This document shows, one piece after another, positions 4,701 through 64,000 of a stretch of 64,000 nucleotides of DNA. Every line of letters begins with the position of its first letter. Positions within the stretch are counted from its first letter, which is position 1. The stretch lies in the IMG/VR virus record IMGVR_UViG_3300045988_093487; one strand, written 5' to 3'. The notes under the pieces were generated by a model. It was not told the DNA's origin. It searched no databases and saw only the letters and a list, made by a program, of their open reading frames with translations. The position numbers and the translations under genes were made by a program. The stretch comes from a virus.

Positions 4701-4708
4701 AAAACCCC

Positions 4709-4737: not shown

Positions 4738-4771
4738 AATGATGTCAAAGATGTTTGACAGGAGGGTTTAT

Positions 4772-6034: not shown

Positions 6035-6046
6035 GGAGGTATAAAT

Positions 6047-6952: not shown

Positions 6953-6957
6953 AGAAA

Positions 6958-6983
6958 TAACCGCCATTTGGCGGTTAAATACA
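6958..6983 (+). terminator. rho-independent terminator
   Basis: aaccgccatttggcggtt hairpin then aaatac. Confidence 0.5.
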
Positions 6984-7001
6984 TATAAAAGAGGTTGAAA
7001 T

Positions 7002-8207
7002 ATGGCATTAACTTTCTATGATACCAATGCCTTGCTGAGTCTGCGTGAAAGCGCATTTGTTGAGAAATTTGCGTGTTCTCATAAAACGCTTGAGGAAATC
7101 GAGAACATTAAGACATCCGGCAAGAAAGACGATGAAACTAGGTATCGCGCAAGGAAAGTGGCACACGCTTTTCAGGATGGAAACAATTACATCGTTTGCA
7201 ACTACCCTTATGACAGAATTGTTAAGGAATTGGCCGCAAGAGGGCTTGAGGTAACTCCAGACGCAATTATTACAACAGAAGCATATCTGTTAAATTCTGA
7301 AACAGATGATGTCGTTTTTGTTACAGATGATGTAAATTGCTATAACATTGCGAAAAACATCTTTTGTCTAAAGACAGAGACTCTAAATAGCATCAAAGAA
7401 GATATTTACGAGGGATATATTAAGATTAGCGGCACAACTGACGAAATCAATGAGCAGATGGACGTTATTGACATGTCGAAGTTGTATGCCAATGAATATA
7501 TTGTAATTGACGATAAGTCGATTGGCAAAACGAAAGAAATGCGTTTTGATGGTAAAAAATTTGTTGAATTAAAGCTACCACCGTCTGGGTTTATTAAGGG
7601 CAAGAATAGTTTGCAAAGATGCGCGCTTGATGCTTTAAACAACAAGGATATTGACATTGTTGCAATTCTAGGAACGTATGGTTCTGGCAAGTCCTTCTTG
7701 TCTATGCAGATGGGATTGTATGGTGTAAATGAGAAAGGCTATCAGTCCAAAATTCTCGGTGTGCGCGAAGCGCGTGGCGAAGGTAGTGCAGTTGGTTACT
7801 TGCCCGGAGAGTTTGAGCAGAAAGTTGGTGACTTCTTTAAGCCTTTGGAGCAACAGCTAAAGGGCGGTGAGTTCGAGTTGCAGAGTCTAAAGCAGCGTGG
7901 TGTACTTGATGTTCAGATTCCTTATTATCTAAAAGGAACTACTTACGATAGTACCATTATGGTTGTTGACGAAGCAGAGGATTTAACGGAATCACAGTTG
8001 CGTTTGGTTGGCACACGTCTTGGTCAGAACTCGAGAATTTTCTTTTCTGGTGACTATAAGCAGTCTCTAATCAATAAAACTATTAGCAATCCGCTCGTTA
8101 AGATGTGTGATGAATTTAAGGGTAGCCCTAATTTTGCTTGCGTATTTCTTGATACCGATGTTCGTAGTGAAGCATCTAAGATGTTTGCTACTTTGTTTAA
8201 ACAGTAA
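7002..8207 (+). CDS. PIN-domain + PhoH-like ATPase (YlaK-like)
   Basis: N-terminal PIN-like region; Walker A GTYGSGKS; PhoH-like C-terminus. Confidence 0.65.
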   Translation: MALTFYDTNALLSLRESAFVEKFACSHKTLEEIENIKTSGKKDDETRYRARKVAHAFQDGNNYIVCNYPYDRIVKELAARGLEVTPDAIITTEAYLLNSETDDVVFVTDDVNCYNIAKNIFCLKTETLNSIKEDIYEGYIKISGTTDEINEQMDVIDMSKLYANEYIVIDDKSIGKTKEMRFDGKKFVELKLPPSGFIKGKNSLQRCALDALNNKDIDIVAILGTYGSGKSFLSMQMGLYGVNEKGYQSKILGVREARGEGSAVGYLPGEFEQKVGDFFKPLEQQLKGGEFELQSLKQRGVLDVQIPYYLKGTTYDSTIMVVDEAEDLTESQLRLVGTRLGQNSRIFFSGDYKQSLINKTISNPLVKMCDEFKGSPNFACVFLDTDVRSEASKMFATLFKQ

Positions 8208-9273: not shown

Positions 9274-10773
9274 ATGGCAAATTTTGCAAATGCAGTTCGT
9301 GAATCTGCACGAATGACTACTACCGCAAATGGAGCAAAGTGCTACAATACCACTGGTAGCAAGATGCTTGACCTGTTCTCTACCGCTGGTGGTATGCGTA
9401 CTCGAATCAACGATGTTCGCGATGCGTTCTCTGCGGCATGGAACGAGAATCCCGAGCTGGCAATTAAGCTGGCTTTCTATTGTCGTGACGTGAGAGGTGG
9501 ACAGGGTGAACGTGACGTTGCACGTGAGATGCTTCGTTGGGTTGCGGAATATCATCCCTCTACCATGCGTAAGAATTTGAAGTTCTTACCTGAGTATGGT
9601 CGATGGGACGATATTTACGTCTTTGTCGGCACTAAGGTCGAGAATGACGTATGGCAGATGGTTCGTGAACAGTTTGCCGAGGACATCAAGAATGTCAATT
9701 CTGGCAAGTCCTGTTCTCTGATGGCTAAGTGGCTGAAGTCCGTCAACACCTCTTCTAAGAAGTCTGTTGAACTTGGTCGTTTGACTGCTCGTAAGCTGGG
9801 GCTGTCTTATATGCAGTATCAGAAAACTCTGGCTAAACTGCGTAAGTACATTAACGTGACCGAGGTTAATATGTCTGCAAACAAGTGGACTGATATTAAC
9901 TACGAGGCCGTCCCTTCTAAGGCAATGACCAACTATCGTAGCGCATTCGCTCGTCACGACCACGAAGGATTTACCGACTATATCAACGCTGTTAAGGCTG
10001 GAGAAAAGACTATTAAATCTAACACTCTGTATCCTTATGACCTTGTGCATCGGTACATGGGCGGTGGTGGCATGGTTTCCTATCGTTCCGGTTACTACAA
10101 CTGCGGTGGTCTGGCAGACAAGGAAGATGCTGTTGTTGAAGCACAGTGGAGGGCACTGCCCAACTACATTGATGGAAACCATAACGTGATGGTTATGGCA
10201 GATACATCCGGTTCTATGCGCGGTCAGCCCATTGAGTCTGCGCTTGGCCTTGCAATGTATTTTGCAGAGCGCAATAGCGGCCCTTATAAGAATCTGTTTA
10301 TGACCTTTAGTACCAATCCTTGTTATGTCACTCTGGATGAACAGAGTATGCTTGGCAATCTGAAGAAGGCCGCAAAAGCTGACTGGATGGGTTCTACCAA
10401 CCTTGAAGCTGCCTTTGCTAAGATTCTCAAGACTGCGACTGACAACCACCTGACTGATGACGAGCTGCCCAAGGCACTTGTTATCATCTCGGATATGCAG
10501 TTCAATAAGTCGTTGATTCAGGGAGACAACTACTTCGACTCTATGAAGAATATGTATGCCGCACATGGTTATACGCTTCCCCATGTCGTGTTCTGGTGCG
10601 TAAATGCTTGGGCTGGTTCTACTCACCACAATAACTATAACGACTATGTTACTGCATTTAGCGGTAATGCCGCAAGCACTTTCCGTGATGTTCTCGGAAC
10701 TATCGGTTATAATGCTTACGAGGCTATGCTGAAGGTTCTGAATGGTGAGCGTTATGCGCAGATTCATGCCTGA
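9274..10773 (+). CDS. vWA-domain protein with TROVE/DUF2828-like N-terminal region
   Basis: MIDAS MADTSGSMRG in the C-terminal half; large N-terminal domain; family assignment from memory, not verified. Confidence 0.5.
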   Translation: MANFANAVRESARMTTTANGAKCYNTTGSKMLDLFSTAGGMRTRINDVRDAFSAAWNENPELAIKLAFYCRDVRGGQGERDVAREMLRWVAEYHPSTMRKNLKFLPEYGRWDDIYVFVGTKVENDVWQMVREQFAEDIKNVNSGKSCSLMAKWLKSVNTSSKKSVELGRLTARKLGLSYMQYQKTLAKLRKYINVTEVNMSANKWTDINYEAVPSKAMTNYRSAFARHDHEGFTDYINAVKAGEKTIKSNTLYPYDLVHRYMGGGGMVSYRSGYYNCGGLADKEDAVVEAQWRALPNYIDGNHNVMVMADTSGSMRGQPIESALGLAMYFAERNSGPYKNLFMTFSTNPCYVTLDEQSMLGNLKKAAKADWMGSTNLEAAFAKILKTATDNHLTDDELPKALVIISDMQFNKSLIQGDNYFDSMKNMYAAHGYTLPHVVFWCVNAWAGSTHHNNYNDYVTAFSGNAASTFRDVLGTIGYNAYEAMLKVLNGERYAQIHA

Positions 10774-10832: not shown

Positions 10833-12365
10833 ATGGTTAATCTTTTAGCATTTGTTCCTATTATCGCAATTATCGCTGTAATTGCATTGATTGTTATTGT
10901 TTTCAAGTCTTGCTATAAGAAAGCACCGCCTAATAAAGCGATGGTCATTACTGGGCCGTCTGGTAGCAAGACTGTTCATGGAAAGGCTTGTTTTGTCATT
11001 CCGCTGATTCAGCGTGTTGATTATATGTCCTTGGAGAATATTCAGGTAGATTTTACGTCTCGTGATGAGATTCCCACTAAGGACGCTATCAATATCAATG
11101 TTGATGCGGTTGCTAATATGGCTATTGATACCGACCCGGAGCGTATGGCGGTTGCCGCATCCAAGTTTCTTGGGTATTCTATCGCAGACATCCAGACGAT
11201 TGTTCAGCCTATTTTGGAAGGTAACATCCGCGAAATTATTTCTCAGACTACTCTGAAGGAACTGATTCAGGGAGACAAGAAACAGTTTGCTGAGAAGGTC
11301 ATGGAGAATGTCGCCCCAAACCTCGCAGACCTCGGTTTGAAGCTGACTACGTTTAACATCCAGAACTTCAAGGATAGAAACGGTGTGATTGAGAATCTGG
11401 GCATTGAGAATACTGTTCAGATTTCCAAGGACGCTAAGAAAGCACAGGCACAGGCAAAGGCTGAAATTGCCATTGCAGAAGCAGAAAGCGCACGTGCCGC
11501 AAATGAAGCACAGGTTGTAGCCGATGCTGAAATCGCTCAGAAGCAGAATGAACTGGCTATTAAGAAAGCACAGTTGAAGAAGGTAACAGAAGTTGAACAG
11601 GCTCGTGCCGATGCCGCTCGTGGAATTGAAGCAGAAGAGCAGCGTAAGGCGCAGGAAATTGCAACTGCAAACGCCAACCTTGCTCGTCAGGAAAAGGAAA
11701 TTGAACTGAAGGAACGTGAGGTTGCCATTAAGGAAAAGTCTCTGGAGGCAGAGGTTAAAAAGACCGCAGAAGCAAAGCGTTACGCAGACCAGCAGGCCGC
11801 AGATGCGCATTTGTATACTGTACAGCGTCAGTCCGAGGCTTCACTGTTCGACCGTCAGAAGAAGGCAGAAGCAGAGAAGGTTGAGGCTACCCAGAGGGCA
11901 GAAGCTGAAAAGATTACCTCTGAGGCAAAGCGTATTGCCGCAGAAAACGAAGCCGCTGGTATCAAGGCAAAGGGCATTGCAGAAGCAGAAGCTATTCGTG
12001 CAAAGGCACTGGCAGAAGCAGAGGGTACTCTGAAAAAGGCAGAAGCTATGCGTGAGTACGGTGATGCCGCAACTATGGATATGAAGCTGGCCGTTGCAAA
12101 GGCTTATATCGACAAGTTGCCTGATATTGCCGCCGCAGTTGCCGCACCTATGGCAAATATTGGCAATATCACTATGTATGGCGAGGGTAACACCGCAAAG
12201 CTGACTGGTGACGTTACCAAGACCATGAAGCAGATTACTGATGGCTTTACTGATGCTACTGGTTTCAACCCTATGATGCTGTTGTCTGGCGTTCTGGGTG
12301 GTAAGCTGGCCGCATCTAACAGCGGTTCTACCGTAAACGTCCATGTTGACGGTGATAATCAGTAA
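10833..12365 (+). CDS. SPFH/flotillin-like membrane protein
   Basis: N-terminal TM segment, SPFH-like core, long Ala/Glu/Lys-rich coiled coil typical of flotillins. Confidence 0.65.
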   Translation: MVNLLAFVPIIAIIAVIALIVIVFKSCYKKAPPNKAMVITGPSGSKTVHGKACFVIPLIQRVDYMSLENIQVDFTSRDEIPTKDAININVDAVANMAIDTDPERMAVAASKFLGYSIADIQTIVQPILEGNIREIISQTTLKELIQGDKKQFAEKVMENVAPNLADLGLKLTTFNIQNFKDRNGVIENLGIENTVQISKDAKKAQAQAKAEIAIAEAESARAANEAQVVADAEIAQKQNELAIKKAQLKKVTEVEQARADAARGIEAEEQRKAQEIATANANLARQEKEIELKEREVAIKEKSLEAEVKKTAEAKRYADQQAADAHLYTVQRQSEASLFDRQKKAEAEKVEATQRAEAEKITSEAKRIAAENEAAGIKAKGIAEAEAIRAKALAEAEGTLKKAEAMREYGDAATMDMKLAVAKAYIDKLPDIAAAVAAPMANIGNITMYGEGNTAKLTGDVTKTMKQITDGFTDATGFNPMMLLSGVLGGKLAASNSGSTVNVHVDGDNQ

Positions 12366-12786: not shown

Positions 12787-13087
12787 TTGTACGATGGTTT
12801 TTGTATATGAACTGAAGTACGCTGATAAACGCAAATTAGTTCCAGTCACAGAGAGTCCGAAGACGAGGACAATTGCTACGGTGATTAACAAAGTTACTGG
12901 AAACGATGTTAAGCGTTTGTATAATCGCCTGAAGCGAAGTGGCAATATGCCACAGATGGAGCATCTAAAAGATGGGAACTACCGTATTATGTATATGGCA
13001 CTGCCTAATGGGTTGAAGTTTGACCCATTCTATAAAGGTGGAACATATTACAGAGGAAGGAGCGTATTTGACCGTGATGACACTTGA
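12779..13087 (+). CDS. hypothetical protein
   Basis: 102 aa ORF overlapping its neighbours. Confidence 0.3.
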   Translation: MGNCTMVFVYELKYADKRKLVPVTESPKTRTIATVINKVTGNDVKRLYNRLKRSGNMPQMEHLKDGNYRIMYMALPNGLKFDPFYKGGTYYRGRSVFDRDDT

Positions 13088-13862
13088 TGATAGAATGAAA
13101 ACTTATTATGAGGGTGCATATCGTGTTTATCTGACGCGGCGTATGCCAGTCATTATCCGAATCGACTCTCGTGCTGGGCACACCTTCACAAAGAATCTGA
13201 AAAAGCCTTTTGATGCAGTTTTCACTGCAACTATGCAGGATACAATGAAGTATCTGTGTGAAAACATTCAGGGCTGTGTAATTGGTTATACGCAGTCTGA
13301 TGAAATTACTTTGTGCCTTGTTGATTATGACAAGCTGGAAACCGATGCTTGGTTTGGTTATAATCTAAACAAGCTGGTAAGCCTTAGTGCATCAATGGCT
13401 ACGTTGGCGTTTAATAAGTATTTTGAACGTAATGCCAATAGAACCCTCACCAAGATGGCATTGTCCTCTGGTGTGAATAAGTTTGAAATTGACGCTTACT
13501 CTGCTACATTGGCAAAGTGTAAAGAAAAGGGTTTGTGCTTCGATTCTCGCGCCTTTAATATCCCGAAGGAAGAGGCATGTAACTGTTTCTTATGGAGACA
13601 GCTTGACGCTTCTCGAAACAGTATTCAGGCGGTCGGTCAGGCAAACTTCTCGCATACTGTTCTGAATGGCAAGAGTACGTCTGAAATTCAGGATATGTTG
13701 ATGACCGAAAAAGGCATCAACTGGAACGACCTTGCGACTGAATTAAAGCGTGGCTCTTGCTGTGTACGAGATGGTAATGGCTGGTCTATTGACCGCGAGA
13801 TTCCTAAGTTTACCGGCGAAGGCCGTGACTATATTGATAAGCTGGTTTTTGTTGGAGAATAA
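13077..13862 (+). CDS. Thg1-like tRNA-His guanylyltransferase / 3'-5' polymerase
   Basis: IRIDSRAGHTFTK...KPFD...GYTQSDEITL matches the Thg1 catalytic core (RxDGRxFHxF, KPxD, YGQSDE); start codon uncertain (13020, 13077 or 13095). Confidence 0.65.
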   Translation: MTLDDRMKTYYEGAYRVYLTRRMPVIIRIDSRAGHTFTKNLKKPFDAVFTATMQDTMKYLCENIQGCVIGYTQSDEITLCLVDYDKLETDAWFGYNLNKLVSLSASMATLAFNKYFERNANRTLTKMALSSGVNKFEIDAYSATLAKCKEKGLCFDSRAFNIPKEEACNCFLWRQLDASRNSIQAVGQANFSHTVLNGKSTSEIQDMLMTEKGINWNDLATELKRGSCCVRDGNGWSIDREIPKFTGEGRDYIDKLVFVGE

Positions 13863-14576: not shown

Positions 14577-14578
14577 CA

Positions 14579-14662
14579 GACGCATACAGCAATCCATAAA
14601 TTTTAATGGTTTAAAAAGAATGCTTAAAACAATCTTTCACGGTTCGATTCCGTTCTGCGTCT
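14579..14662 (+). tRNA. atypical tRNA-like gene (possible Leu-TAA, non-canonical D region)
   Basis: acceptor agacgca/tgcgtct (7/7) and cggTTCGATTccg T-arm, but about 14 extra nt around the D-arm; candidate anticodon arm gaatg-cttaaaa-caatc. Confidence 0.3.
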
Positions 14663-14739
14663 AATTTTTAGTTATTCTTCATCTTTATCTGAACTCGATA
14701 GACACGAACAGCAACACTTTCTTTGTTCGCGCCACTAAT

Positions 14740-14812
14740 TGCGAATATAGTTTAGATGGTTAGAACGCCACACCAAAATGTGGAGACGTGGGTTCGAGTC
14801 CCACTTATAGTT
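14740..14812 (+). tRNA. tRNA-like element / probable tRNA pseudogene
   Basis: canonical D-arm (tagtttagatggttagaac) and T-arm (gtgggTTCGAGTcccac) but a 6-nt anticodon loop (ccaaaa) and a poorly paired acceptor. Confidence 0.3.
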
Positions 14813-16413: not shown

Positions 16414-16529
16414 GGCTGTGTAGCTCAACTGGTAGAGCGCGTAAAACCTATCTATTTTAGATAGTAACAGCTACACATTTTTCCATTATAAGGACGAGGT
16501 TTATGGTTCGAGTCCATACGCAGCCACCA
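16414..16529 (+). tRNA. tRNA-like gene with about 40-nt insertion
   Basis: acceptor ggctgtg/cgcagcc; canonical D-arm tagctcaactggtagagc; T-arm tatgg-ttcgagt-ccata; CCA encoded; extra hairpin tatcta-tttt-tagata between the D and T arms. Confidence 0.35.
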
Positions 16530-16920: not shown

Positions 16921-17008
16921 GCCAGTGTAGTTCAGTTGGTAGAACGCGGGTTTTGTAATCCCGATGCCGAAAGGGTTCTCGCAGGTTCAAGTCCTGTCAC
17001 TGGCTCCA
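16921..17008 (+). tRNA. tRNA with anticodon TGT (Thr-like) and a 17-nt variable region
   Basis: acceptor gccagtg/cactggc; D-arm gttc-agttggta-gaac; anticodon stem cggg(t)/(t)cccg with loop ttTGTaa; T-arm gcagg-ttcaagt-cctgt; CCA encoded. Confidence 0.5.
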
Positions 17009-24798: not shown

Positions 24799-26456
24799 AT
24801 GGCAAACTATACAGTCTACCACTTACATACTATGCTGAGTAATGCGGTCACGAACATTGACTCAGTTACTACATATAAGCAGTACATAGAAAAGGCAAAG
24901 GCGTGTGGAATGACTGCTATGGCCTTTTCAGAGCATGGTAATATCTTTGAATGGGTTCATAAAAAAGATGCCATTGAGGCCGCTGGCATGAAATATATTC
25001 ATGCCATGGAAGCATACCTTACCGAGCGTATTCCAGACGAGGGTGAGGAAAAGATTCGTGATAATTACCACTGCGTTTTGATTGCTAGAAACTGGGAGGG
25101 TGTTAAGGAACTTAACGTCTTGCAGGGTAAGGCATTTAATCGTGTTGACGGTCATTATTACTATGCACCTCGAATTACGTTCGCTGAACTGTTCTCCACG
25201 AGTAATAATATTATTATTACCACTGCCTGTGTTGCGTCTGCATTGTGTAGAGGAACCGAAAGCGCAAAGGAATCTTATCTTAGATTCTTAACAAGGCATA
25301 AAGATAGATGTTTCTTGGAAGTCCAGCACCATAATACGCAGAAGCAGTTTGAGTATAATAGATACTTGGCGAATCTGTCCAAGGAAACTGGTCTTAGATT
25401 GATTGCTGGTACTGATACCCACTGTTTGAACGCGGAGCATGAACTTGGCCGTAGCGCACTACAGCGTGGCAAGGGCGTTTTCTTCGATGATGAAGTCGGT
25501 TGGGATTTAACATGGAAAACCTACGATGAACTTGTCGAGGCATACAGAACACAAGATGCTCTCAGTGAAGAGGAATATATGTCTGCAATCAATAACACAA
25601 ATGTTATGGCAGATATGATTGAAACCTTTGAGCTTGATAGAAGTTTCAAGTACGCAAAGATTTACGATGATGGCGAGAAAGTCCTTCGTGAAAAGTTGTT
25701 TGCACCAGAAACTATCGAACCGATTATCAAAGAGGGATTTTCAAGAGAAGAAGTAACTGCGCGTTTGGAGCAGGAAATTGACACTTTTAAGGCTTTGAAT
25801 GCGACTGACTTTATTCTTCTCGAAGACCATATTGTGCGTTGGGAACATTCGCATGATATGTGGCAAGGCCCTGCACGTGGAAGCGCCGCTAGTTCCTTGG
25901 CTTTGTACGCTTTGGGTGTGACAGAAGTAAACCCATTGAAATATGGATTTTATTTCTGGCGATTCATGGATAAATCTAAGTACAGCTTGGCTGACGTTGA
26001 TATGGATAACTCGGCAAAAGACCGTGATAAATTGAAGTTTTGGATGTTGAACGACCACCTAGACCTTCCGAATGTCAAGACTTGCGAAATTATTACGTTC
26101 AACACAATCGCATTAAAGGGTGCAATTCGTGATATCGGACGTGGATTGGATATGCCTTTGGATGAGGTTGATACGATTGCAAAGGCCGTTCATGAAGTAG
26201 CAGTCGATGAAGAAAAGATTGTTACTATTGATGATAGCTGGCGTAAGAAATATCCAGAGCTGTTCAAGTATGTTGATATTGTTATTGGCACTATCGTTAG
26301 TATCGGTTCTCATCCGTCTGGTGTTGTTGTTTCTGACCATGACATTGAATCAGAATTTGGTCTGTGTTATCTAAAAGATGACCCCTATCCTGTCTCCTGC
26401 ATCAATATGAAGGAACTTGATTCCCTTAATTTTACCAAACAGGATGCCCTTGGGTA
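24799..26456 (+). CDS. dnaE: DNA polymerase III alpha (DnaE-type), exon 1 (PHP domain and start of palm)
   Basis: PHP motifs YHLHTMLS and FSEHGN; ends ...NFTKQDALG at a 5' splice site cttgggT|. Confidence 0.75.
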
Positions 26457-26681
26457 AACAATCCTGCCCAAGTAAAAGCGAGTTATATGCTGGGAAGTGC
26501 TTAGAGCCTCAGTTACCAAAGTGTGACAATACTGAGGATTGCACAATCAGCAGGCACGATAAGTTCTGCCTCAACGACTATGGGAATATCCCAACTGTCA
26601 TAGAGTGATTTATGACAGTAACCTCGCTGAAATGATATAGTCTGGTCTGCATTTAATAGTGCAGAGTCAAGCAGAAATGAC

Positions 26682-26710
26682 TTGACATTTTGTTTGCTTT
26701 CTGATATAAT
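26682..26710 (+). promoter_or_regulatory. conserved phage promoter inside the intron, upstream of the endonuclease ORF
   Basis: gaCTTGACA, 17 bp spacer, TATAAT atAtG. Confidence 0.55.
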
Positions 26711-26782
26711 ATATGTAAAGGTGGTGATTGTATGGCGAAAGCAAGATATACGAAAGTGTAGTTCTATAATGAAATACTCCGG

Positions 26783-27799
26783 TTGTATAAAGAGTATGGC
26801 GAGATAAACCAAAATATCTACGCAAAACACACAAGTCTTGATGTTAGCTTTAGACAGTATTGTAATAAGTACGGTGGATTAAAGCAGATATGTAAAGACC
26901 TTGGAATAGAGTATAGCTATTATAATGAAGTTTCCAAAGAGCAAGCGCTTGAACGTGGGCGAATGTTGTTAGAGCAATATGGATTCTTGCGAAAGGAACT
27001 TTGTCAAAAGAACGGAATATCATCTAGTACAGTTGCGAAACTGTTTGGAAGTTATCAAAACTTTTATAAGGAAGTTGGATATAACACAGACTTTCGTAGA
27101 GATGTTCCAGTTGAAGATGTAAGAAAAGATATACTCGAATTTATAACCGAAACTGGTTCTAAGTCAATTACAGACTACAAGAAAGCGCATCGGTATTCAC
27201 AATCTATAATTGATAGATGTGGTGGGTGGCATACAATTCTTGTTGATATTGGAGTAGAACCAAAGAAATGGCGTAATGGTAAAGACAATATAATCAAACA
27301 GACACGTGAATTGATAAACAAATATGGTTATCTGTCAAGTAAACTAATAGAAGATAATTGCGATTTTACTTTGCAAGCGTTGGAGTATTACTTAGGAAAC
27401 GCTGATAGTATTTGCAAATATTTCGGTAATGAGCATTTATTTGACTACGGCAGAAGTAGTCAAGAACTCAGAATAGCAGAGTTACTCAAAGATATTCTAG
27501 GTGTCGGGAATTTTTCACGTGAAGTTACATGGGATTGGTTGTTGTCAGACAGCGGCAATCATCTGTATGTGGACTTTTATATTGATTCTTTAAAAGTTGC
27601 GATAGAATATGACGGTGAGCAACACTACAAATACGTTGAAAGGTTTCATAGAAATTATGATGGGTTTCTTGAATATCAGCGTAGAGATAATATAAAGAGT
27701 TCGTTGCTTGCAGAACATAACATCAAACTTATTAGAATATCATATACGCAAGAAATATCAGAAAAATATCTAAGAGATATATTAAGCAAACAAAATTAA
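26783..27799 (+). CDS. intron-encoded homing endonuclease (PD-(D/E)xK / Vsr-like C-terminal domain with N-terminal HTH repeats)
   Basis: C-terminal YVDFYIDSLKVAIEYDGEQHY nuclease-like motif; 3-4 N-terminal helix-turn-helix repeats; lies entirely within the dnaE intron. Confidence 0.55.
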   Translation: MYKEYGEINQNIYAKHTSLDVSFRQYCNKYGGLKQICKDLGIEYSYYNEVSKEQALERGRMLLEQYGFLRKELCQKNGISSSTVAKLFGSYQNFYKEVGYNTDFRRDVPVEDVRKDILEFITETGSKSITDYKKAHRYSQSIIDRCGGWHTILVDIGVEPKKWRNGKDNIIKQTRELINKYGYLSSKLIEDNCDFTLQALEYYLGNADSICKYFGNEHLFDYGRSSQELRIAELLKDILGVGNFSREVTWDWLLSDSGNHLYVDFYIDSLKVAIEYDGEQHYKYVERFHRNYDGFLEYQRRDNIKSSLLAEHNIKLIRISYTQEISEKYLRDILSKQN

Positions 27800-27809
27800 C
27801 AAAATTACG

Positions 27810-29344
27810 TGGATAATGTTGGTATCATCAATGAAACCTGTAAGTTGGCTGGTATCGAGAGATTATCGCCAAAAACGATTGACTTTGAGGATGATGCAGT
27901 TTGGAATAGTATCAAGGAAGATACATCTTTGATTTTTCAGATGAACTCCAACTATGGTCAACGCACAGTTGATAAGATGTTATCACCAGAGGTTTACAGT
28001 AAGATTAAGAAGCAGATTCCTAATATGACACGTTTGGATTTGCTGACATTCATCAATGCTCTTATTCGTCCTTGTGGTAAGGGAGTTTATGATGATGCGA
28101 CGAACGGTATCGTATCTAAAACAGGAATTAAAGAGATTGATAATTTGCTTGGCTCTTCTATGGGCTATGCAATTATGCAAGAGCCTCAGATGGCTTTTGT
28201 TCAGGAGTTCTGTGGTTACGATTTCTTGAGAGCTGATAAGCTCCGTAAGATTATCGGTAAGAAACTTGGTACACGCGACCAGCTTCCTATTATTAAGGAA
28301 GGCTGGGAAAAGAACGCAAAGGTCAAATATCATTTAACTGATGAGCAATCTGACAAGATTATCAATCCGTTCTTACAGTGTATCCTTGATGCTACACGGT
28401 ATTCGTTCTCACTGGTTCATAGTTTGAGCTATTCTTGTATTAGTTATGAATGTGCATATCTGCGTTATCATTATCCATTACAGTATTTGACCTCTTGCCT
28501 TAACGCATGGAACGGTGATGACAACAAGACAGCAGAAGCTATTGAGTACGCAAATAGTCGCAAGGTAAAAATTCTTGCGCCTAAGTTCAGACATGCAAAG
28601 GCAGAATACTTCTATGACCTTGCTACGAACAGTATTTATAAGGGTACGAGCAGTATCAAGGGATTGAATGCAGGATATTCTGATTTCTTGTATTCTTTGA
28701 AGGATAACACTTATAAGACATTCACTGACCTGTTGTATGATATTCAGGCATCGGGTATGCCTCGTGACCAAGTTGAAACTTTGATTAAACTTGATTACTT
28801 TGAAGAGTTCGGTACTTGTAGAGAGTTGGTAACAATCTTTAAGCAGTTCCAGTTCTTTAAGAAGGGCGAAGCGAAAACGATTGCTAAGAGTAAGATTCCA
28901 GACGAGATTACAATGAACATTATTAAGCGCAATGCTAACGAAACCGAGAAGCAATTCAATAAGTTAAATTGTCATAATATCTTGAACGAGATTGAACAGT
29001 ATATTATGACTATGAATCTTGGTGATGTTGACATCAAAACCAAGATTGCTAATCAGCTTGAATATATGGGTTACATTGGTATTAAGACTGACAAATCCGA
29101 AGATAGACCTAAGATTGTTATTCTTGAGATGAAGGTCATGAAACAGCGTGAATCTGTTGAGCCTTGGGGAGTTATCATTGATGCGCAGTCCATTGGTTCT
29201 GGTAAGCGTAGTTCTTATACAGTTCCTTACAAACTGTATAAGAAATGCAAGTTCAATAAGAATGATGTAATTAAGATTCGTGATTGGTATAAGAACAAGC
29301 GTGGTTACTTCTATATTACTGATTATGAATTTGTGGTTATGTAA
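27810..29344 (+). CDS. dnaE: DNA polymerase III alpha (DnaE-type), exon 2
   Basis: continues DnaE palm/fingers homology (NVGIINETCKLAG...); the first codon is completed by the last nucleotide of exon 1. Confidence 0.7.
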
Positions 29345-55510: not shown

Positions 55511-56140
55511 TTATCTAACAAACATTGCTTTCCAAGTATTCATACCTACAATTCCATCGGCAGTTAGATTATGTGCTCTCTGGAATTTTTTTACCTCATC
55601 TTCAGTGTTCTTTCCAAATTGACCATCAATAGGTATACCAAGTTTCTTTTGAACGAATTTTACAGCACTTGCTTTACCAACATTCGTTCCGCGTTTGATA
55701 ATTGGCATTAGGTCAACTCTATAATATTCGTATACGCCAGCTCTTGCACAAAGCCAAAATGTTTCTCTTGGTCTGGTATCAACATGGATAAAGTTCGTGT
55801 TACCGTAGTAGTACACTCCAACACCATTCGTGATAGTTTGTGCGTAATATGCCAATTCAACAGCGGAAACACCAGCAATCTGGATATCTGCCGCCATACC
55901 TTTTACATGATAGGAACCAGCAGAACCACCGACCCTGCGGTTATGCTCTGGGGTACGATATGCAGAATTTATTACAACCGGCTTACCAAAATAGTCACGG
56001 ATTTTTTGTAGAACTTCAACGAGAGCTGTATCAATAAGAACGGAGTCAGAACCATCCTTACAGGCGAACTCTTTTACAGTAAAATTTGTAGATAATTTTG
56101 TATTACCGTGTTCCTTTAGACTGTATGTTTTAACAGCCAT
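55511..56140 (-). CDS. endolysin: M15 peptidase (VanY-like) with C-terminal peptidoglycan-binding domain
   Basis: SAYRTPEHNRRVGGSAGSYHVKGMAADIQI (M15 zinc peptidase); C-terminal FQRAHNLTADGIVGMNTWKAM (PG_binding_1-like). Confidence 0.7.
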   Translation of the reverse strand: MAVKTYSLKEHGNTKLSTNFTVKEFACKDGSDSVLIDTALVEVLQKIRDYFGKPVVINSAYRTPEHNRRVGGSAGSYHVKGMAADIQIAGVSAVELAYYAQTITNGVGVYYYGNTNFIHVDTRPRETFWLCARAGVYEYYRVDLMPIIKRGTNVGKASAVKFVQKKLGIPIDGQFGKNTEDEVKKFQRAHNLTADGIVGMNTWKAMFVR

Positions 56141-56583
56141 TATACCATCCCTTTCTTAGATAAATAATATTTAGGTTTTTCTTCGTGGAACAAGAAGTAT
56201 CTTAAATAATCGTCAACGATAATAGCAACGATGCATAAGAAAAACCACAGAATAGTAAACGGTAAGCAAATCTAACCAAGAATATTAAATGGTAGATTTG
56301 AATAATCCCAAATGTGAAGACCCAGAAATAGATTTAGTATAATTCCTGCGATAAACTCACAACACGTTACAACAAGTGCACCAATTATAGACTGTTTCCA
56401 AATTTCCATTTTCCAAGGTAGATAATTATTTAATCCACCAATGACAACAAAACAAAAACCTCCAAGAACGCCCATTGTCCAATGAGTATGTCCGCGACAA
56501 AGCATCTCTATTCCGCAATATGCAAAACCACCAATTAAAAACAAGATTATAATTTTAAGTGATTCTTTTGCAAGATTTCTCAT
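56141..56583 (-). CDS. membrane protein with in-frame TAG; readthrough form ends in a TAATG overlap with the endolysin start
   Basis: 103 codons, TAG at 56272-56274, then 43 more in-frame codons including a TM helix (ICLPFTILWFFLCIVAIIV) ending at TAA 56140-56142, which overlaps the endolysin ATG. Confidence 0.55.
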
Positions 56584-56592
56584 ACAATCACC

Positions 56593-57228
56593 TTATTCAT
56601 ATTTAATCTCAATATTGTCAACTTCATTTTTAGATTTGCATTCTTTAATTTTTACTTCAATATCTTGTTGCTTAGATACTATTGGTTTTACATATTTAAC
56701 AATAGCGAGAGACAGCGCCGCAAGATTTTCGTAAGTCCACGCCCTACATCTATCTCCTGTTGTATTCCATGTAAGTTCCATAGGTTCCCCGATTGTAGAT
56801 GAAATTTGATAGGCGGCAAGGTTGCTTGTCAATAGCGCTTGTTTTTCTTCTGTAACAGAATAATATTCTCCATCAATCCATTGGAGTGGATGAGACGCAA
56901 GATACTCTTTAAGGTCGGTTTTGGATTTTGCGATTTTAGTATTTTTAATTTCGTTTAGTTTTGCTTCTAGCTCTTCTGCTGTATATAAGATGTATTTTTG
57001 AATTGGGATTTCTTCATCCCAAGCTCCTTTTGCTTCTACCGCTTCAACATCAACAATTTTTTTTACATCTTTGCCGCCATTTGGATATTCGGCAATGGTT
57101 TCATAATGAAATTTTTCTTTTACTTCATCAACTTTGTCATGGTGGATTGTTTTAATGTCATTTATAAGATATCCAAGTTCAAGATTAGGGTTGAAAATTT
57201 CATTCCCAGTTTCATCAATTATTTCCAT
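56593..57228 (-). CDS. hypothetical protein (structural?)
   Basis: 211 aa ORF. Confidence 0.45.
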   Translation of the reverse strand: MEIIDETGNEIFNPNLELGYLINDIKTIHHDKVDEVKEKFHYETIAEYPNGGKDVKKIVDVEAVEAKGAWDEEIPIQKYILYTAEELEAKLNEIKNTKIAKSKTDLKEYLASHPLQWIDGEYYSVTEEKQALLTSNLAAYQISSTIGEPMELTWNTTGDRCRAWTYENLAALSLAIVKYVKPIVSKQQDIEVKIKECKSKNEVDNIEIKYE

Positions 57229-57256
57229 TTTCTTCTCCTTTCTTCGGTTTTCCGGT

Positions 57257-58054
57257 TTACGCTACCACATGCCCAGTGTCGTCCACCGTCGCGTCCTGCG
57301 GCAGAATTATACAGGGGCGGATACCAGCCAAGTCGTAGCAGGCGAAAGTACTCCGGTCGCCAACGGAGTCGATAGTAATGGCATATCCACTGTCGGCACA
57401 GAATGGAGAGCGGAGCCACCAGTATGTGGCAGAGCCGTCGAGGAATGCGATACGCTTAGAATCCGAGCTATCATCCGCACAGCCCTTGAAATAGGCCAGC
57501 TCCGCACCTTCGCCGCTCGGCATATAGGGGAAGTTGAAACTCGTTTCGGTCGCACTGAGCAGGAAAATCTTCGCAGACAGGCCGTTCGAGCCGCTGGTGA
57601 CAATCGTAGACGTGTTGCCGCCTTTGCGGTACGGGAGCTTTACCTGCTTGATGGCGTTCTTGATGTTCGGCTCGAGAAGGTTTAGGAATGTGCTGTTCAG
57701 GTAGGAGTGGATGGTGCTGTTGGCGTAGTCGTTAGTGCCCGAACTACGCCACTGGCTGTTTTCGTAGATGTCTTTCATCAGCAGCCACGTGCCATTGCAG
57801 CTTGCGTCATAAATACCAGCATCCGGAATGCCCTGATGCACCACCAGCCAGTCGTAGTCCTTGCCGCTCACGGCGATTTTGACGGTCTTACCCACTTCGT
57901 AGCCGCCAAGCAGCGTGCCGCGCTGATACCACAATCTAGCAACCCCATTCACACCAATGTATGCCTTCTGGACTTGACGTGCTTTACCGTCTACTCCGAT
58001 ATACATCTTGGAGATGCTTTTCGCCACCCCCCCAATTCCGATATATGCACTCAT
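57257..58054 (-). CDS. putative receptor-binding protein with DUF1566/C-type-lectin-like C-terminus; candidate DGR target
   Basis: C-terminal ATYWWLRSPFCADSGYAITIDSVGDRSTFACYDLAGIRPCIILP resembles the DUF1566 ending (YW..S...A...G...VRP); the whole gene is far more GC-rich than the phage; GC-driven overlapping ORFs in other frames are artefacts. Confidence 0.5.
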   Translation of the reverse strand: MSAYIGIGGVAKSISKMYIGVDGKARQVQKAYIGVNGVARLWYQRGTLLGGYEVGKTVKIAVSGKDYDWLVVHQGIPDAGIYDASCNGTWLLMKDIYENSQWRSSGTNDYANSTIHSYLNSTFLNLLEPNIKNAIKQVKLPYRKGGNTSTIVTSGSNGLSAKIFLLSATETSFNFPYMPSGEGAELAYFKGCADDSSDSKRIAFLDGSATYWWLRSPFCADSGYAITIDSVGDRSTFACYDLAGIRPCIILPQDATVDDTGHVVA

Positions 58055-58070
58055 ATTGATTACCCCCTGT

Positions 58071-58730
58071 TTATCCTGAAATTGCAGTCGTCAATTTCCC
58101 TGCAATCACCTGTATCTGAGCATTCGCAGCAGTCAAAATATTTTCTACGTTTGTCTGCAAGTCAGAAGGCAACGTATCACCATACCGAATTGCAGAAATA
58201 GTTTCAATTTTATCCTCTCGTTTAATCCATTGACGTAATGCATTACAATATGTCGTTTGCTGAGTAACAAAACCTTTTGCGGCGATGTATAGTTCCATTA
58301 TATCAGAAGCACTATACATTTCGCATGGTTCACCATCTGCATGGTATGGGTATTCAGTCGCTCCAAGAGTGATTGCAGAAAAGATTCCGTCAATATTAGT
58401 TTGGTCATTTGCTGTTAAACTAAAATGTTTCTTACCAACACTTAGCTCGACATCAACACCGCTGTATATTACTTGTTCACAAATAGACGACATTTCGTCT
58501 AGCTTACTCTGACGTACTTCGTCAATGGTTGGCTCTACAGATTCTGGTTCTAGCGTAGGTTCCGGGACTTCTCCATATTCGTAGACAGTGTAGTATCCAT
58601 TATCCATGGAAATGCCCCAATACTTTTCGCCGGGTTTAGCAGAACCATTATGTTCATCCACCGCACTCTCAATGGAAGAATAATCCGCATTTTTAATCTC
58701 AACCTTATAGTTTGGGATAATTTTATCCAT
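58071..58730 (-). CDS. hypothetical protein (structural?)
   Basis: 219 aa ORF with RBS aaggagg. Confidence 0.45.
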   Translation of the reverse strand: MDKIIPNYKVEIKNADYSSIESAVDEHNGSAKPGEKYWGISMDNGYYTVYEYGEVPEPTLEPESVEPTIDEVRQSKLDEMSSICEQVIYSGVDVELSVGKKHFSLTANDQTNIDGIFSAITLGATEYPYHADGEPCEMYSASDIMELYIAAKGFVTQQTTYCNALRQWIKREDKIETISAIRYGDTLPSDLQTNVENILTAANAQIQVIAGKLTTAISG

Positions 58731-58745
58731 AACTCAAACACCTCC

Positions 58746-58979
58746 TTACGAATAAACGAACAAGACTGTATCGGTCTCCAAAGGGCTTCCGGCTCCGGGG
58801 TCAGATGTCTATGCCTTGAATTTAAAATTATTTACATTATCAATAGATTCTACATTGATTGTTCCATCGCTTTCTACATTTATTCCCTTACCTATTTTAA
58901 CCCCGCCAATATCCTCTTTGGTTGCAGGGGAAAGGGCCATATATCCACCTATAGACGTTGGGCCATAAGCCATATTCAT
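58746..58979 (-). CDS. small tail-fibre-like protein with in-frame TAG
   Basis: MNMAYGPTSIGGYMALSPATKEDIGGVKIGKGINVESDGTINVE shares the GGVKVGSGLTVDADGTLS motif with the large fibre; TAG at 58809-58811, then 20 codons ending at a TAA that overlaps the next gene's RBS (TAAGGAGG). Confidence 0.4.
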
Positions 58980-59104
58980 TCCTCCTTTTATTATATTTAA
59001 TTTTTATTATAATGTAATTTAAACAAATCATAAAATAATCATCGAAAAACAATAAGACCGCGTTTTGATGGGTGCTACAAATGGGAGTTATGGAAACGTA
59101 TAAA

Positions 59105-62100
59105 TTAACCAACTCTTTTCCAGATGTGCACATAGTAGGCGGCGGGCTGCACGGTATAGCTGCGACCGTAGATTGAGTTCGAGCGGGAAGCATCAAAGTA
59201 AACATCATACGTCGAACCTGACGTACCACTGTAGCCACCCCAAGAAGTATTGATTTCTACGAATTTTAAAGCTCCCGATGATTTCAAAGACGCTTTTGAA
59301 CCACGGAATGGGGAGGACTCTGCGGTTGCTTCTATTAAGCTGCCCGTGATGTTCGGCAGTCCGGCCTCCACCGTGCTTCCCGCTGTGTAGCCTGTGCCAG
59401 CACCCATCAGCACGCGGTTAAATGCAATCTCCTGCCATGTACCGCCGAACAGTGCGGCGGGACTGGTAGTGCTGACTGTTTGAAAAATACTGCCCACCGG
59501 GTAGGCAGACAGGCCGCTGTCCGCAGAAAGTGTTCCGTCCGCATCGACCGTCAGACCGCTGCCCACCTTCACGCCGCCCAGCGTGGTGGCGGTGGCAGCA
59601 GGGAGGGTGTATTCCTGAGCATCAGCACTCAATACACCTTTATTAGAAACTTTTAGCCCCTCTCCTACAATGATGCCACCTAGCTCTGTCGTCGTTGCAG
59701 GGGGCAGCATTGCTCCACCAATAGGGGTTTGACCAAAACTCATAAGGATATCTTCTCGGATAATGTAATAAAAAGCTTTAATAGATTCCGTTGGGATGTT
59801 ACGAGCACGGATTCTCAAATAATTAGGTAATGATTCTGTTGAAGTAAAATAACATTTTTTAGCGACTACATTACTATCTGGTGCAATGACAAGTGCAACA
59901 CAATCACTTCCTGTAATTCCTGTAGCTACAATGTCAATATAATTCGGATATGCAGAGTTACTATCTTGGTTCCATCCAGTTGTGGGAATCGTAATAGATA
60001 CAAGATTTATTTTTTCTGCTGCCTCATAACCAAGTGCTCCGTCAACGTTGTCTTTTATTAAACTAATCAAGCCTTTATTACCAACTGTAATATTGTCTCC
60101 AATTTGTACAATACCGGCATTAGTTCTCGTAGCATAATTAGTGTCTGTAACAACGCTTGTTTTAGAATAAGGAGTGATAGCTTGGTCAACAGAGGGGGCA
60201 TTTGCGGAGTATTTTAATACATATCCCCAATTGTCTTTTTTAGCTATAGATACATTGATAATAGAATTAAAGAATGTAGAGTCCGTGTTTATCCATAGTT
60301 CTGCATTACTCTGACCGTTTCCACCCGATGTTGGGATTAAATAGAAAAACTCTTTTTTTGTTGAATTGTTTTCGATATCTACATCGGAAGATTTTAGCTT
60401 ATCATCATACATAATATAAGAGAAAATGTAGGCTGTAGACAAATCGTTACTATTTGTTTGTGCTAAGTCATGGATGAATAATGTAATATTCTTACTATAA
60501 GCGACAGAGTTATTTTCTGTTGAAACAATTGTAGGACAGTTAATCTCAATTTTTATTAAATCACCGTCTGATGTGTTAGAAATGTTTCCTACATGAAACC
60601 ATGTTTGTCCGGTTACAGTAGACGCAGGGATGGTTTCTGTTAATATATATCCTTTTGGAGCAGCGCCGTCAATTGTGCTCGTCTCATTATTGCCCTTTGT
60701 GATGATGATTTTATCCCCTGTTGGACGCAAATCTTTGATGTACGTCGCATCTATTTGTTGACCAATAGAGTCATTTGTTGCGCTGTCTGCGCTAGTCGCA
60801 GTGTCAGCGTTACCAGTTAGATTACCAACAAACTTAGCATCACCGCTCATAGTAATGTCGCCAGTCATTGTACCGCCACTAAGTTTCAACGTGCCAACTA
60901 ATGCGTTTGCTACATTAGTCTCGCTTGTTTTAGCATTAGTTTCACTAATCTTCGCTTTATCTTCAGATGCCTTTGCTGCGTTTTGACTTACAAGAGCAGC
61001 GGCGGCAGATGCTGCGGCATCATTAGCAGATTGCTGTGAATTATCCGCATAGCTACTTGCGTTCTGTTCTGAAGCAGCAGCGTTAGTCTCGCTTGTTTTA
61101 GCATTAGTTTCACTAATCTTCGCTTTATCTTCAGATGCCTTTGCTGCGTTTTGACTTACAAGAGCAGCGGCGGCAGATGCTGCGGCATCATTAGCAGATT
61201 GCTGTGAATTATCCGCATAGCTACTTGCGTTCTGTTCTGAAGCAGCAGCGTTAGTCTCGCTTGTTTTAGCATTAGTTTCACTAATCTTCGCTTTATCTTC
61301 AGATGCCTTTGCTGCGTTTTGACTTGCAAGAGCAGCGGCGGCAGATGCAGCGGCATCATCAGCAGATTGCTGTGAATTATCCGCATAGCTACTTGCGTTC
61401 TGTTCTGAAGCAGTTGCGTTTATTTCTGATTGCTTTGCCGCCTTTTCTGATGCCAATGCTTTGGTTTCACTGGTTTTAGCAGCATTTTGAGAATTTAAAG
61501 AGGCTTGTGCCGAATTTGCAGAATCACTTGCAGAACTAGCCGAATCATCAGCGCTTGTCTTAGATGCGTTTTCTGAAGCTTTCGCGTTTTGTTCCGAAAT
61601 CTTAGCATTAGCTTCTGATGTAGCAGATGCAGTCTATGAAGCCTTTGCTTTATTTGCACTATCCGCTGCATTTGTCTCCGATGTCGCGGCATTCTGCTCA
61701 GACTGTTTAGCATTAGCTTCAGAAGTAGCGGCGGCTTGTGCAGATTTTTGAGCAGCAATCTGATAATTATGTGCATTTATTTCAGATTGTCTAATACTCT
61801 CAGCGGAAGCAGCGGCGGCATCTTTATATGCGTTTGCGTTAGCTTCAGAAGCGGCTGCATTACTAGCTGATACGGCTGCTGCATTTTTATAACTTTCTGC
61901 ATTGACTTCAGAAGCCTTTGCGTTGTCTTCAGACTTCTTAGCGGCCTCGGCAGCATTCATAGCGTCATCGTGGTAGCTACCAATTATTTTTTGGAATGTT
62001 GCAATAGCATCTGTCCAAACATCTGGATTTTTTGATGCAGAACCAACATCGAGCAGTCCTTTTTCGATATTCAAAACCTATGGTTTTGTATGTAAAATAT

Positions 62101-62461
62101 ACTAACCTTCTTCTGCCGCATCAGTAATGCGCCCATCATATATAGAAATATCATAAGTCAAAGTACCACTCGCGGCAGTTGCCTTTTGACTTAAATACCA
62201 AGGGAATATAATATATCTTTTTTCTCCATCAGTCTTAACTTCGCGAGTGTCGGAAAAGAAAGTATCAAATTGACCAAGAGCATTAACATACCGAATAGCT
62301 AAGATTTTATCTGTAATATCAACATCATCAATAACAGCCGGAATCTTAAACTTCAGAATACGCGAGTCGTTATCGTCAACAACAGCGATATTTTCCGTTG
62401 CGCATGGTACAATATCTCTATTTCTAATTTCAAAAATATATGAACTCAAATATTTCACCAT
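59105..62461 (-). CDS. tail fibre protein (about 1119 codons) containing three in-frame TAG codons
   Basis: ORFs 62102-62461, 61634-62074 and 59105-61456 are all in one frame, separated only by TAG codons at 62102-62104, 62078-62080 and 61634-61636; the Ala/Ser-rich repeat sequence continues unbroken across the 61634 TAG; no ATG or usable RBS exists for the internal segments; start ATG 62461 has RBS gaagga. Confidence 0.65.
60915..61420 (-). repeat. three near-identical tandem 168-bp (56-aa) repeats inside the tail fibre gene
   Basis: period 168 bp from ttagtctcgcttg at 60915, 61083 and 61251; encodes ASEQNASSYADNSQQSANDAAASAAAALVSQNAAKASEDKAKISETNAKTSETNAA three times. Confidence 0.8.
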
Positions 62462-62477
62462 CCTTCAAAAATATAAT

Positions 62478-62510
62478 TAGCATCCTCTAAACGAGGATGC
62501 CAACAGTTTA
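62478..62510 (-). terminator. rho-independent terminator (minus strand)
   Basis: minus-strand hairpin gcatcctcgtttagaggatgc followed by taattatattttt. Confidence 0.6.
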
Positions 62511-62515
62511 CTCTT

Positions 62516-62663
62516 AGATAAACTTTTCACCAGTAATATATTCATACTCTTCTGGAGTAATCCATCCCTTAGTGGTCACATTGTAAACCATCTGCTTAGT
62601 CCAGAATCCAGAATCGTAGTAATATTTAGCCTTCTTGCCATGAACGGACAATTCCATATCAGT
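62516..62663 (-). CDS. XkdX-like small phage protein
   Basis: 48 aa MTDMELSVHGKKAKYYYDSGFWTKQMVYNVTTKGWITPEEYEYITGEKFI with the XkdX-like ITxEEY..ITGE ending; family assignment from memory. Confidence 0.4.
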
Positions 62664-62671
62664 CATATATT

Positions 62672-62837
62672 AGTCCTCCATTCCTACTTCATCAGAAGCA
62701 ACTGCGTCAGTTGGCAAATCAATATCAGACATCACGGCAATATACTCAATCAGTGATTGCTGATTGCTAATCTGTGCATTACGATATTCTGCCATTTTCT
62801 CCTCATGAGGAGACATGATTGCCTTTTCAAATACCAT
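62672..62837 (-). CDS. hypothetical small protein
   Basis: 55 aa ORF between the reverse transcriptase and the XkdX-like gene. Confidence 0.3.
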
Positions 62838-62841
62838 AATT

Positions 62842-63888
62842 CTACCTCCATAATTCGTAATAGAATTGATTCATCCTTTGTATTAGCTTATATGAATTAC
62901 CATGTTCTGCATGAGCAACCCAACAGCTATAACATTGGTCTATCTTTTCTTTAGTTCTACGACCTTTTACAACAAGTTTAACCATTTTGCGCAATTTACG
63001 CTTTTCGTTCTTAACATTATCACCAAGAATTGACATAACAACTTTGCCAGTTTCAGTAAGCCTGAACTTAAATCCCAAGAAAGGAATACCCTGACCAACT
63101 CTATACAGTTTAGTTTTCTTAGGATGTAGTTCAAGACCAATTTTAGCTAATTCTTCTTGAATCTCGTGCATACACTTAATCAAGTAATTTCTGTCGTGAT
63201 GAATAAGAACAAAATCATCCATATATCTGATATAATACTTAATGTGCATACGTTCTTTAATCTTATGGTCAAGTTTATCCAGAACAGAAATGCCAGCAAT
63301 CTGAACGACTTGGCTACCGGGATTATACCCGGTATCACCGAGATATTGTTCATTTAATATTCTACAGACTCTATCTGCATATTCTGCTGGTAATTTCTCT
63401 CTAAACAAGGCATTTGTTGTATCGTGCCGCATATTATCATAATAGTGTTTAATGTCGCATTGAAGAACCCAAGCATCAAGACCGTTCTTTCTATAGCATC
63501 TTTGCAGATGACATTTTAAACGACCTCTAGCAAAATCAGTTCCTTTTCCTTTTTGACAAGCACAATTATCATAAATAAAACTTCGAGTCATTAACGGATA
63601 CACTATATTGTCATTAAGGCTACGTTGATACACTCTGTCTCTAAAAGCTATGCTTACAGCAATTCTTTCTTTTGGATGAGTGATATGAACCGTCTTAGTC
63701 GGGCGAGGTTGGTATGTTCCGTCTGCTAGTTGCTTTTCCAATTTAAGAACCTGTTCAATTCCATGAATATAGAAATTAGCAACAGATTCTTTCCAGCTAA
63801 CATTTTTCTTACACTTATATAAAGAATCAAGTAGGTGCTCGAAGTCTAGGACATTTACTACTTGATTCGATTCCTAATTGTTACTCAT
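62842..63888 (-). CDS. reverse transcriptase, DGR-type, with in-frame TAG at codon 5
   Basis: GTYQP, RIAVSIAFRDRVYQRSL, QCDIKHYYDNM (motif A), GYNPGSQVVQIAGI (SQ variant of the QGxxxSP motif, the DGR hallmark), YIRYMDDFVLI (YxDD); the conserved N-terminus LDFEHLLDSLYKCKK... is reachable only from ATG 63888 through the TAG at 63874-63876; the ORF track starts at an internal TTG; the gene ends with TAG at 62842-62844 and a TGA 5 codons later. Confidence 0.65.
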
Positions 63889-64000
63889 TAAACTTTGACC
63901 CAACAACTAAACTAAGCCGTATATAGGCGTACTGGCTCGAAAGCCAACGCCATCGGCATAGAGTGGTTTAGTTATCTTTTATAATTTTTAAAGCAAGATA

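Follow-up and report, generated by a model that had tools for sequence, protein, structure and literature searches.

In-frame TAG codons in a retroelement reverse transcriptase gene and TAG-to-glutamine recoding of the late genes of a human gut phage

Stop-codon recoding of late genes (genetic code 15) is established in gut phages, including the crAss-like phages, Lak, phAss-1 and the clades described by Borges et al., who found suppressor tRNAs for TAG in just 40% of the TAG-recoded genomes, a difficulty that other authors report as well. Amber codons have also been reported in seven retroelement reverse transcriptase (RT) genes of Zeta crAss-like phages, where they hamper the detection of the retroelements (PMC12386605). 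Both an alternative code and amber codons in such RT genes are already known, and neither biological point made below is new in kind.

We analysed a stretch of viral DNA of 64,000 nucleotides (IMG/VR record IMGVR_UViG_3300045988_093487; the window from here on), the right-hand 64 kb of a tailed gut phage of about 116 kb found in human gut metagenomes. Like the TAG-recoded gut phages, it carries in-frame TAG in structural and lysis genes, its early genes are compatible with the standard code, TAG stands for glutamine and is seldom a terminator, and no suppressor tRNA was detected, which is typical of the group. In contrast to phAss-1, which has three CUA suppressor genes, the two tRNA arrays of this clade show none, and unlike known recoded phages it has a late region resembling that of Bacillus phage SPbeta (a YonO-like RNA polymerase, PF05183, and YonJ, YonG and YonD domains). 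The GenBank phage collection that we searched held no close annotated relative; the best nucleotide match covers 5% of the queried 9-kb late region (window 55000-64000), and the identity of the primase-helicase to GenBank phages does not exceed 37.5%.

Two known systems bear on the retroelement itself. As in the Zeta crAss-like phages (PMC12386605), the RT of a diversity-generating retroelement (DGR) contains in-frame TAGs in a TAG-recoded phage, and tools that assume the standard code miss or truncate the gene. The phage lineage, however, is a different one, and the host phylum probably differs as well because of a gene link to a Faecalibacterium phage and the SPbeta-like genes. With the retroelement of Bordetella phage BPP-1 our locus shares the parts and their order, adenine-specific mismatches between the repeats and an RT that aligns over its full length. 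It differs in its target, a DUF6273 protein matching a family of Hoc-like head decoration proteins where BPP-1 has the tail-fibre tip protein Mtd, and in the recoded TAGs of its RT gene.

The reverse transcriptase and its retroelement

The RT gene begins with ATG at 63888-63886 on the minus strand, followed by AGT AAC AAT (S N N) and then by TAG, which agrees with the original prediction of an ATG four codons upstream of a TAG at 63874-63876. The far end of the gene is also as first described, with a second in-frame TAG at 62844-62842, the sense codons N Y G I, and TGA as the fifth codon after it. This TGA is probably the true terminator, to judge from the sequences of relatives, because the close homologues P0001 and P0002 are translated with Q in place of the TAG and TAA closes all other late genes once TAG is read through. 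From the first TAG up to TTG 63741 (codon 50) there is no ATG, GTG, TTG or CTG in frame, and the lack of a standard start in this interval had been correctly noted; the possible starts there are two ATT codons (codons 41 and 44). Inspection of the sequence before ATG 63888 revealed no clear ribosome-binding site. The frame behind the first TAG encodes ESNQVVNVLDFEHLLDSLYKCKKNVSWK... and includes the YMDD that had been pointed out as well as GYNPGSQVVQIAGI; its first 44 codons correspond to the conserved N-terminus of the enzyme.

The enzyme had been called a DGR-type RT, with HMM classification against retron and group II enzymes proposed as a check. Its top match among solved structures is 8ub7_A, a structure with the sequence of the Bordetella phage retroelement RT, both when the RT is used as a profile (E 2e-30, positions 4-341, N-terminus included) and when it is used as a single sequence (E 3e-20, residues 8-343). 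The match to a group II intron maturase is weaker (E 8.5e-21) and begins only at about position 47. Against the NCBIfam models for group II intron, retron and defence RTs the protein lies far under every curated cut-off: TIGR04416 gives 93 bits where the cut-off is 300, and the retron and Drt models are likewise far below theirs. Matches to Pfam RVT_1 and PHROG 1423 were also found. By these comparisons the RT belongs to the retroelement clade and not to the group II intron, retron or defence RTs, and the DGR assignment is upheld both by the 8ub7_A match and by the template repeat, Avd-family gene and target gene upstream. The sequence GYNPGSQVVQIAGI, which the original prediction had taken as an SQ-containing motif 4, is present, but the argument built on it holds only in a loose sense, as the canonical glutamine of GxxxSQ is Q196 and not that of the S192-Q193 pair that had been singled out. 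The motif reads GSQVVQ in the window and GSLTSQ in BPP-1; the last Q of the window motif (Q196) matches the glutamine of the Bordetella motif in the alignment, and the Ser before it is replaced by Val. In the related enzyme of loci L003 and L001 the same motif is GGQPSQ.

The other parts of the retroelement lie just past position 64000, in L002, a 115.9-kb ENA contig that extends the window (window 64000 corresponds to L002 8838, at 100% identity, and at 100% across the RT region). The cassette runs from the target gene with its variable repeat through a hairpin, an accessory gene, the template repeat and a spacer to the RT, with all parts on the RT strand and upstream of the RT (Table 1). The Avd-like accessory protein had no match in Pfam or among the sequences of solved structures. 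Over 122 nt the variable repeat shows 18 mismatches to the template repeat, of which 17 fall on template adenines. Within the cassette in-frame TAG is confined to the RT; the target and accessory genes have none. Judged by the sequence of these parts, the RT belongs to a complete diversity-generating retroelement. It would copy the template repeat into cDNA with errors at adenines, and the error-bearing cDNA would then rewrite the C-terminal variable repeat of the 402-residue DUF6273 protein.

We also considered the window itself as a source of these parts. Aligned locally, the 112 nt that precede the RT (63889-64000) had no repeat partner within the window, and a template repeat inside the window was rejected after neither these 112 nt nor the C-terminus of the in-window DUF6273 gene yielded one. 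The latter gene (57257-58054) was also rejected as the target of this template, alignments of its C-terminus giving nothing.

A different retroelement RT is found in L001 (13637-14851) and L003 (13597-14886), at another position, after the tail fibre, with two in-frame TAGs in L001 and nine in L003; in both loci a DUF6273 gene occupies the place of the window's RT. The retroelement RT thus differs in both identity and position, and cassettes have therefore been swapped within the clade.

Table 1. Coordinates of the RT gene, the retroelement cassette and the TAG-containing late genes of the window
Feature	Position	Strand	Details
DGR RT gene, full length	62827-63888	minus	353 sense codons, ATG 63888 to TGA 62829-62827; two in-frame TAGs, predicted to be read as Gln
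In-frame TAG, RT codon 5	63874-63876	minus	Predicted Gln; seen in the sequence; retained in L002, L004, L005 and L006
In-frame TAG, RT codon 349	62842-62844	minus	Predicted Gln; close homologues P0001 and P0002 carry Q there
Tail-fibre gene	59105-62461	minus	1,118 codons; TAGs at 62104-62102, 62080-62078 and 61636-61634
Lysis-region membrane protein gene (PF06541)	56140-56583	minus	One in-frame TAG, 56274-56272
Small late gene	58746-58979	minus	One in-frame TAG, 58811-58809
Target gene	L002 6821-8029	RT strand	402-aa DUF6273 protein; matches 'Hoc-like head decoration' family
Variable repeat	L002 7898-8019	RT strand	C-terminus of target; ends 10 nt before the target stop codon
Hairpin	L002 8037-8066	RT strand	Perfect, 13 bp with 4-nt loop; 7 nt past the stop codon of the target gene
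Avd-family accessory gene	L002 8169-8612	RT strand	147 aa; PHROG 3206 'Avd protein of DGR', E 1.2e-8, full length
Template repeat	L002 8644-8765	RT strand	73-194 nt past the end of the window
Spacer, template repeat to RT	3' part (112 nt) 63889-64000	minus	About 185 nt in all

TAG codons in the late genes

The plus strand of the window, from position 1 to about 55.1 kb, carries early genes (replication genes, 13 tRNAs and tRNA-repair enzymes), and the lysis, tail-fibre and retroelement genes occupy the minus strand between 55.2 and 64.0 kb. In-frame TAG occurs in four late genes of the window, the RT among them (Table 1). Under the standard code the tail-fibre gene falls into three pieces (62102-62461, 61634-62074 and 59105-61456), all in one frame and separated only by TAG; its Ala/Ser/Asn-rich repeats continue straight across a TAG, and its TAGs align with CAG in relatives. 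A similar picture emerges for the lysis-region membrane protein, in which the PF06541 match (residues 37-122) spans the TAG at codon 104, a codon present as TAG in all five relatives. The next 8.8 kb of L002 add five more late genes with 14 in-frame TAGs in 2,712 codons, among them six in a 640-codon gene and two in a 1,089-codon gene. Across about 5,500 late-gene codons this makes 21 in-frame TAGs, and the pattern recurs in more distant relatives (54-60% protein identity).

Terminators present the other side of this usage. With TAG read through, 17 of the 18 late genes stop at TAA and one, the RT, at TGA. The 82 plus-strand reading frames stop at TAA (49), TGA (30) or TAG (3), and read-through would extend only one of them, by 61 codons. 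TAG is avoided as a terminator in this phage, and the early genes are readable with the standard code.

A low abundance would suffice for an RT, and a dedicated suppressor tRNA was not found in the loci searched, both of which would suit a leaky stop that is weakly read through, giving trace amounts of the enzyme with no true reassignment of the codon. Structural genes that are needed in bulk, such as the tail fibre and the 1,089- and 640-codon genes, speak against this reading: a single one has as many as six TAGs, and weak read-through of structural genes with several TAGs would leave almost no product; moreover, TAG makes up about 10% of the glutamine-type codons in the late genes. We therefore regard a leaky stop as very improbable.

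The TAG at codon 5 is found in independent assemblies of four samples (L002, L004, L005 and L006), and in L005 the codons ahead of it are altered (AGT to AAT and AAC to AAT, turning MSNN into MNNN) with the TAG retained. An assembly error as the source of this TAG is excluded, the four assemblies being independent and the neighbouring codons variable. If the TAG were instead a real nonsense mutation, the RT would be a pseudogene and the retroelement dead, and standard-code translation from the ATG does halt after four codons. Such a mutation, however, would sit badly with a TAG kept in four assemblies while its flanking codons change synonymously or conservatively, with an RT that is otherwise free of frameshifts and further stops and keeps every family-invariant residue, with twenty other in-frame TAGs in clearly essential late genes, and with a variable repeat that diverges from its template specifically at adenines. 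There is next to no chance that the gene is dead.

Homologues of the enzyme bear on where translation starts. The query was the read-through RT protein (353 aa, with Gln at both TAGs), for which 3,613 homologues were found; the best of them, with lengths of 340-397 aa, align to 95-100% of it. When 16 of the 3,613 were aligned, the full-length proteins had their Met about 8-15 residues ahead of the block VIGFDALYESM.KCKKGV.WK, and the start position that this implies matches ATG 63888 exactly. Six invariant residues (S22, C26, V30, W32, K33 and S35) lie upstream of TTG 63741, and the database protein P0001, which has 137 member sequences, reads MNNNQESNQ across the TAG codon. The homologue coverage, the Met positions and the invariant residues bear out the conserved N-terminus that the original prediction had placed behind an in-frame TAG. 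It had also named an outcome that would refute it, initiation at TTG 63741 with a shorter but functional enzyme. This TTG is the nearest canonical start past the TAG, and standard-code gene callers give a 299-aa product, but a working enzyme begun there, or at one of the rare ATT codons, would lose its start region: from TTG 63741, 49 residues would go, including the six invariant positions, and the lost segment is matched by the N-terminus of the Bordetella RT. Aligned full-length homologues begin ahead of the conserved block, no ribosome-binding site precedes TTG 63741, and such a start would leave the TAGs of the other late genes unexplained, so that a downstream start is hardly credible.

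The identity of the encoded amino acid follows from related phages. The TAG codons of L002, aligned in five related contigs, appear as TAG 63 times, CAG 19 times, CAA five times and other codons seven times, the change being to a glutamine codon (CAG or CAA) in 24 of 31 substitutions. The RT of the related phage L003 has three of its nine TAGs at family-invariant glutamines, in DRVVqR (Q88, window numbering) and GGqPSqY (Q193 and Q196), and the L001 orthologue has Gln at all three. Comparison of these sequences shows that TAG stands for glutamine in the late genes. Some Firmicutes read UAG as pyrrolysine, and an amino acid other than glutamine, for instance pyrrolysine from a Firmicutes host, is an exceedingly unlikely reading, given the exchange of TAG with CAG or CAA and its place at three invariant glutamines of the RT family.

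We consider it very likely, from the sequences compared, that recoding is the explanation: the late genes would read TAG as glutamine (code 15), and the RT would thus be an intact DGR polymerase of 353 aa. The original prediction left the cause of the TAG unstated; the cause appears to be a genome-wide TAG-to-glutamine recoding of the late genes and not something specific to the RT. On the evidence of the related genes the RT gene is intact, the 'stop' near its start being an ordinary glutamine codon of the recoded late genes, and the protein is predicted to have 353 residues because TAG is a sense codon there. Translation would run from ATG 63888 through Gln5 and Gln349 to the TGA. The TAG at codon 5 may also delay synthesis of the RT until the infected cell decodes TAG, which would be late in infection.

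The search for a TAG decoder

Decoding of TAG would depend on a decoder factor, which was not found in the loci searched. No tRNA with a CUA anticodon was found in the 13-tRNA array of the window (ARAGORN with default and relaxed settings; Rfam with gathering and E-value thresholds), in the same 13-tRNA array of three relatives, in a second array of nine tRNAs that lies shortly upstream of the late genes (Met, Asn, Gln(UUG), Pro, Asp, Ala, Leu, Ser and Ser), or in any other fetched related locus. A scan for the pattern of a CUA anticodon loop with a T-loop behind it likewise found none in about 0.93 Mb of fetched loci, nor in L049-L057. The searches included ARAGORN with introns allowed and covered about 23 kb of this exact phage via its relatives only. 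The two arrays hold 22 tRNA genes called by ARAGORN (13 and nine), in addition to an interrupted tRNA-Ile. A gene for a release factor or a glutaminyl-tRNA synthetase was also absent from the precomputed Pfam annotation of the fetched loci, in which window 32-42 kb is unannotated.

It seems rather doubtful that the clade makes TAG a glutamine codon without any CUA-anticodon tRNA gene. Two routes to it are conceivable. Host release factor 1 might be disabled and a glutamine tRNA might read UAG by near-cognate pairing, the candidates being the phage tRNA-Gln(UUG), whose gene lies a short way upstream of the late genes, or the tRNA-Gln(CUG) of the host. Alternatively, the decoder might be made by RNA processing, the phage having a large tRNA toolkit and at least one interrupted tRNA gene.

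The genes of this tRNA and RNA-repair toolkit (window 2-8207, 13020-13862 and 49346-50812, plus strand) encode an RNA ligase, an RlaP nucleotidyltransferase, a KTI12/AAA_33 kinase-like protein, PhoH, a Thg1-like enzyme and a CCA-adding enzyme. The interrupted tRNA gene (window 16414-16529, plus strand) matches the Rfam tRNA model at 45.9 bits but has 51 nt where the model expects 11; removal of 40 nt (16443-16482) leaves a perfect 76-nt tRNA-Ile(UAU) with CCA. The insertion interrupts the anticodon stem in its 5' strand, forms a 7-bp hairpin of its own and is kept in the relatives L022 and L046-L048. Two degenerate tRNA-like elements stand between tRNA-Arg(UCU) and tRNA-Glu on the plus strand, one at 14578-14663 (22.9 bits with Rfam) and the other at 14741-14812 (43.6 bits, with a 6-nt anticodon loop and three acceptor-stem mismatches). 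These two elements and the interrupted gene were considered as hidden suppressors and rejected, none of them being able to present CUA and the third being the interrupted tRNA-Ile(UAU). The tRNA-Thr(UGU) of the window (16921-17008, plus strand), which is also found in relatives, has 88 nt and a long variable arm, a feature unusual in a threonine tRNA. Between the tRNA-Gln and tRNA-Pro of L062 there is a match to YrlA, a Y RNA-like family (11971-12070), with 39 bits, under the cut-off of 69; the window encodes a DUF2828/DUF7788 protein at 9274-10773.

Genome context and implications

Several further features of the genome were seen in the course of the analysis. Positions 57201-58000 and 59201-59600 of the window form islands of 52-62% G+C against 33-39% in most neighbouring intervals. 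The first is a gene for a 265-aa DUF6273 protein, the DNA of which is 89% identical over 407 nt to a Hoc-like gene of the Faecalibacterium phage FP_Brigit, and the second is the C-terminus of the tail fibre. Their composition and matches suggest that the islands may be recently exchanged receptor-binding modules, which would hint at the host. Also inside the tail-fibre gene, a 168-nt unit occurs in three tandem copies (100%, 100% and 97% identical; window 60915-61418), of which L002, otherwise identical, has one fewer. The DNA polymerase III alpha gene (window 24799-29344, plus strand) is split between two frames, one of 552 aa and the other of 511 aa, which flank a 338-aa frame of unknown function.

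Roughly the first 110 nt of the window, which include the start of the RNA-ligase gene (window 2-1123), recur as L062 1-127 in the opposite genome orientation. There the repeat opens contigs of 51-56 kb that bear the other arm of the genome, and many independent assemblies break at this place, which points to either a short inverted repeat at the ends of the genome or a branch in the assembly. The relatives L012 and L013 instead run on into 8.6 kb of additional early genes, including those for DNA ligase, YqeY and PTH2. The other arm (L062 5989-8442 and 14108-16398) encodes a YonO-like RNA polymerase (PF05183) and YonJ, YonG and YonD domain proteins; it also has genes for ClpP, an HU-like protein and an anaerobic ribonucleotide reductase, with a late-gene set like that of SPbeta.

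The clade would be a reasonable one in which to study how TAG is decoded where a suppressor tRNA has not been found, a gap shared with published surveys, because its relatives supply parts of the genome unseen in this phage. For annotation, the standard code gives the RT as a fragment of 299 aa (263 aa in L005) and the tail fibre in three pieces, and the retroelement is easily missed; translation of the late genes with code 15 recovers all three. The phage adds a gut lineage of about 116 kb with SPbeta-like late genes to those known to be TAG-recoded, and its retroelement would provide a hypermutation enzyme that requires the recoded state for its synthesis.
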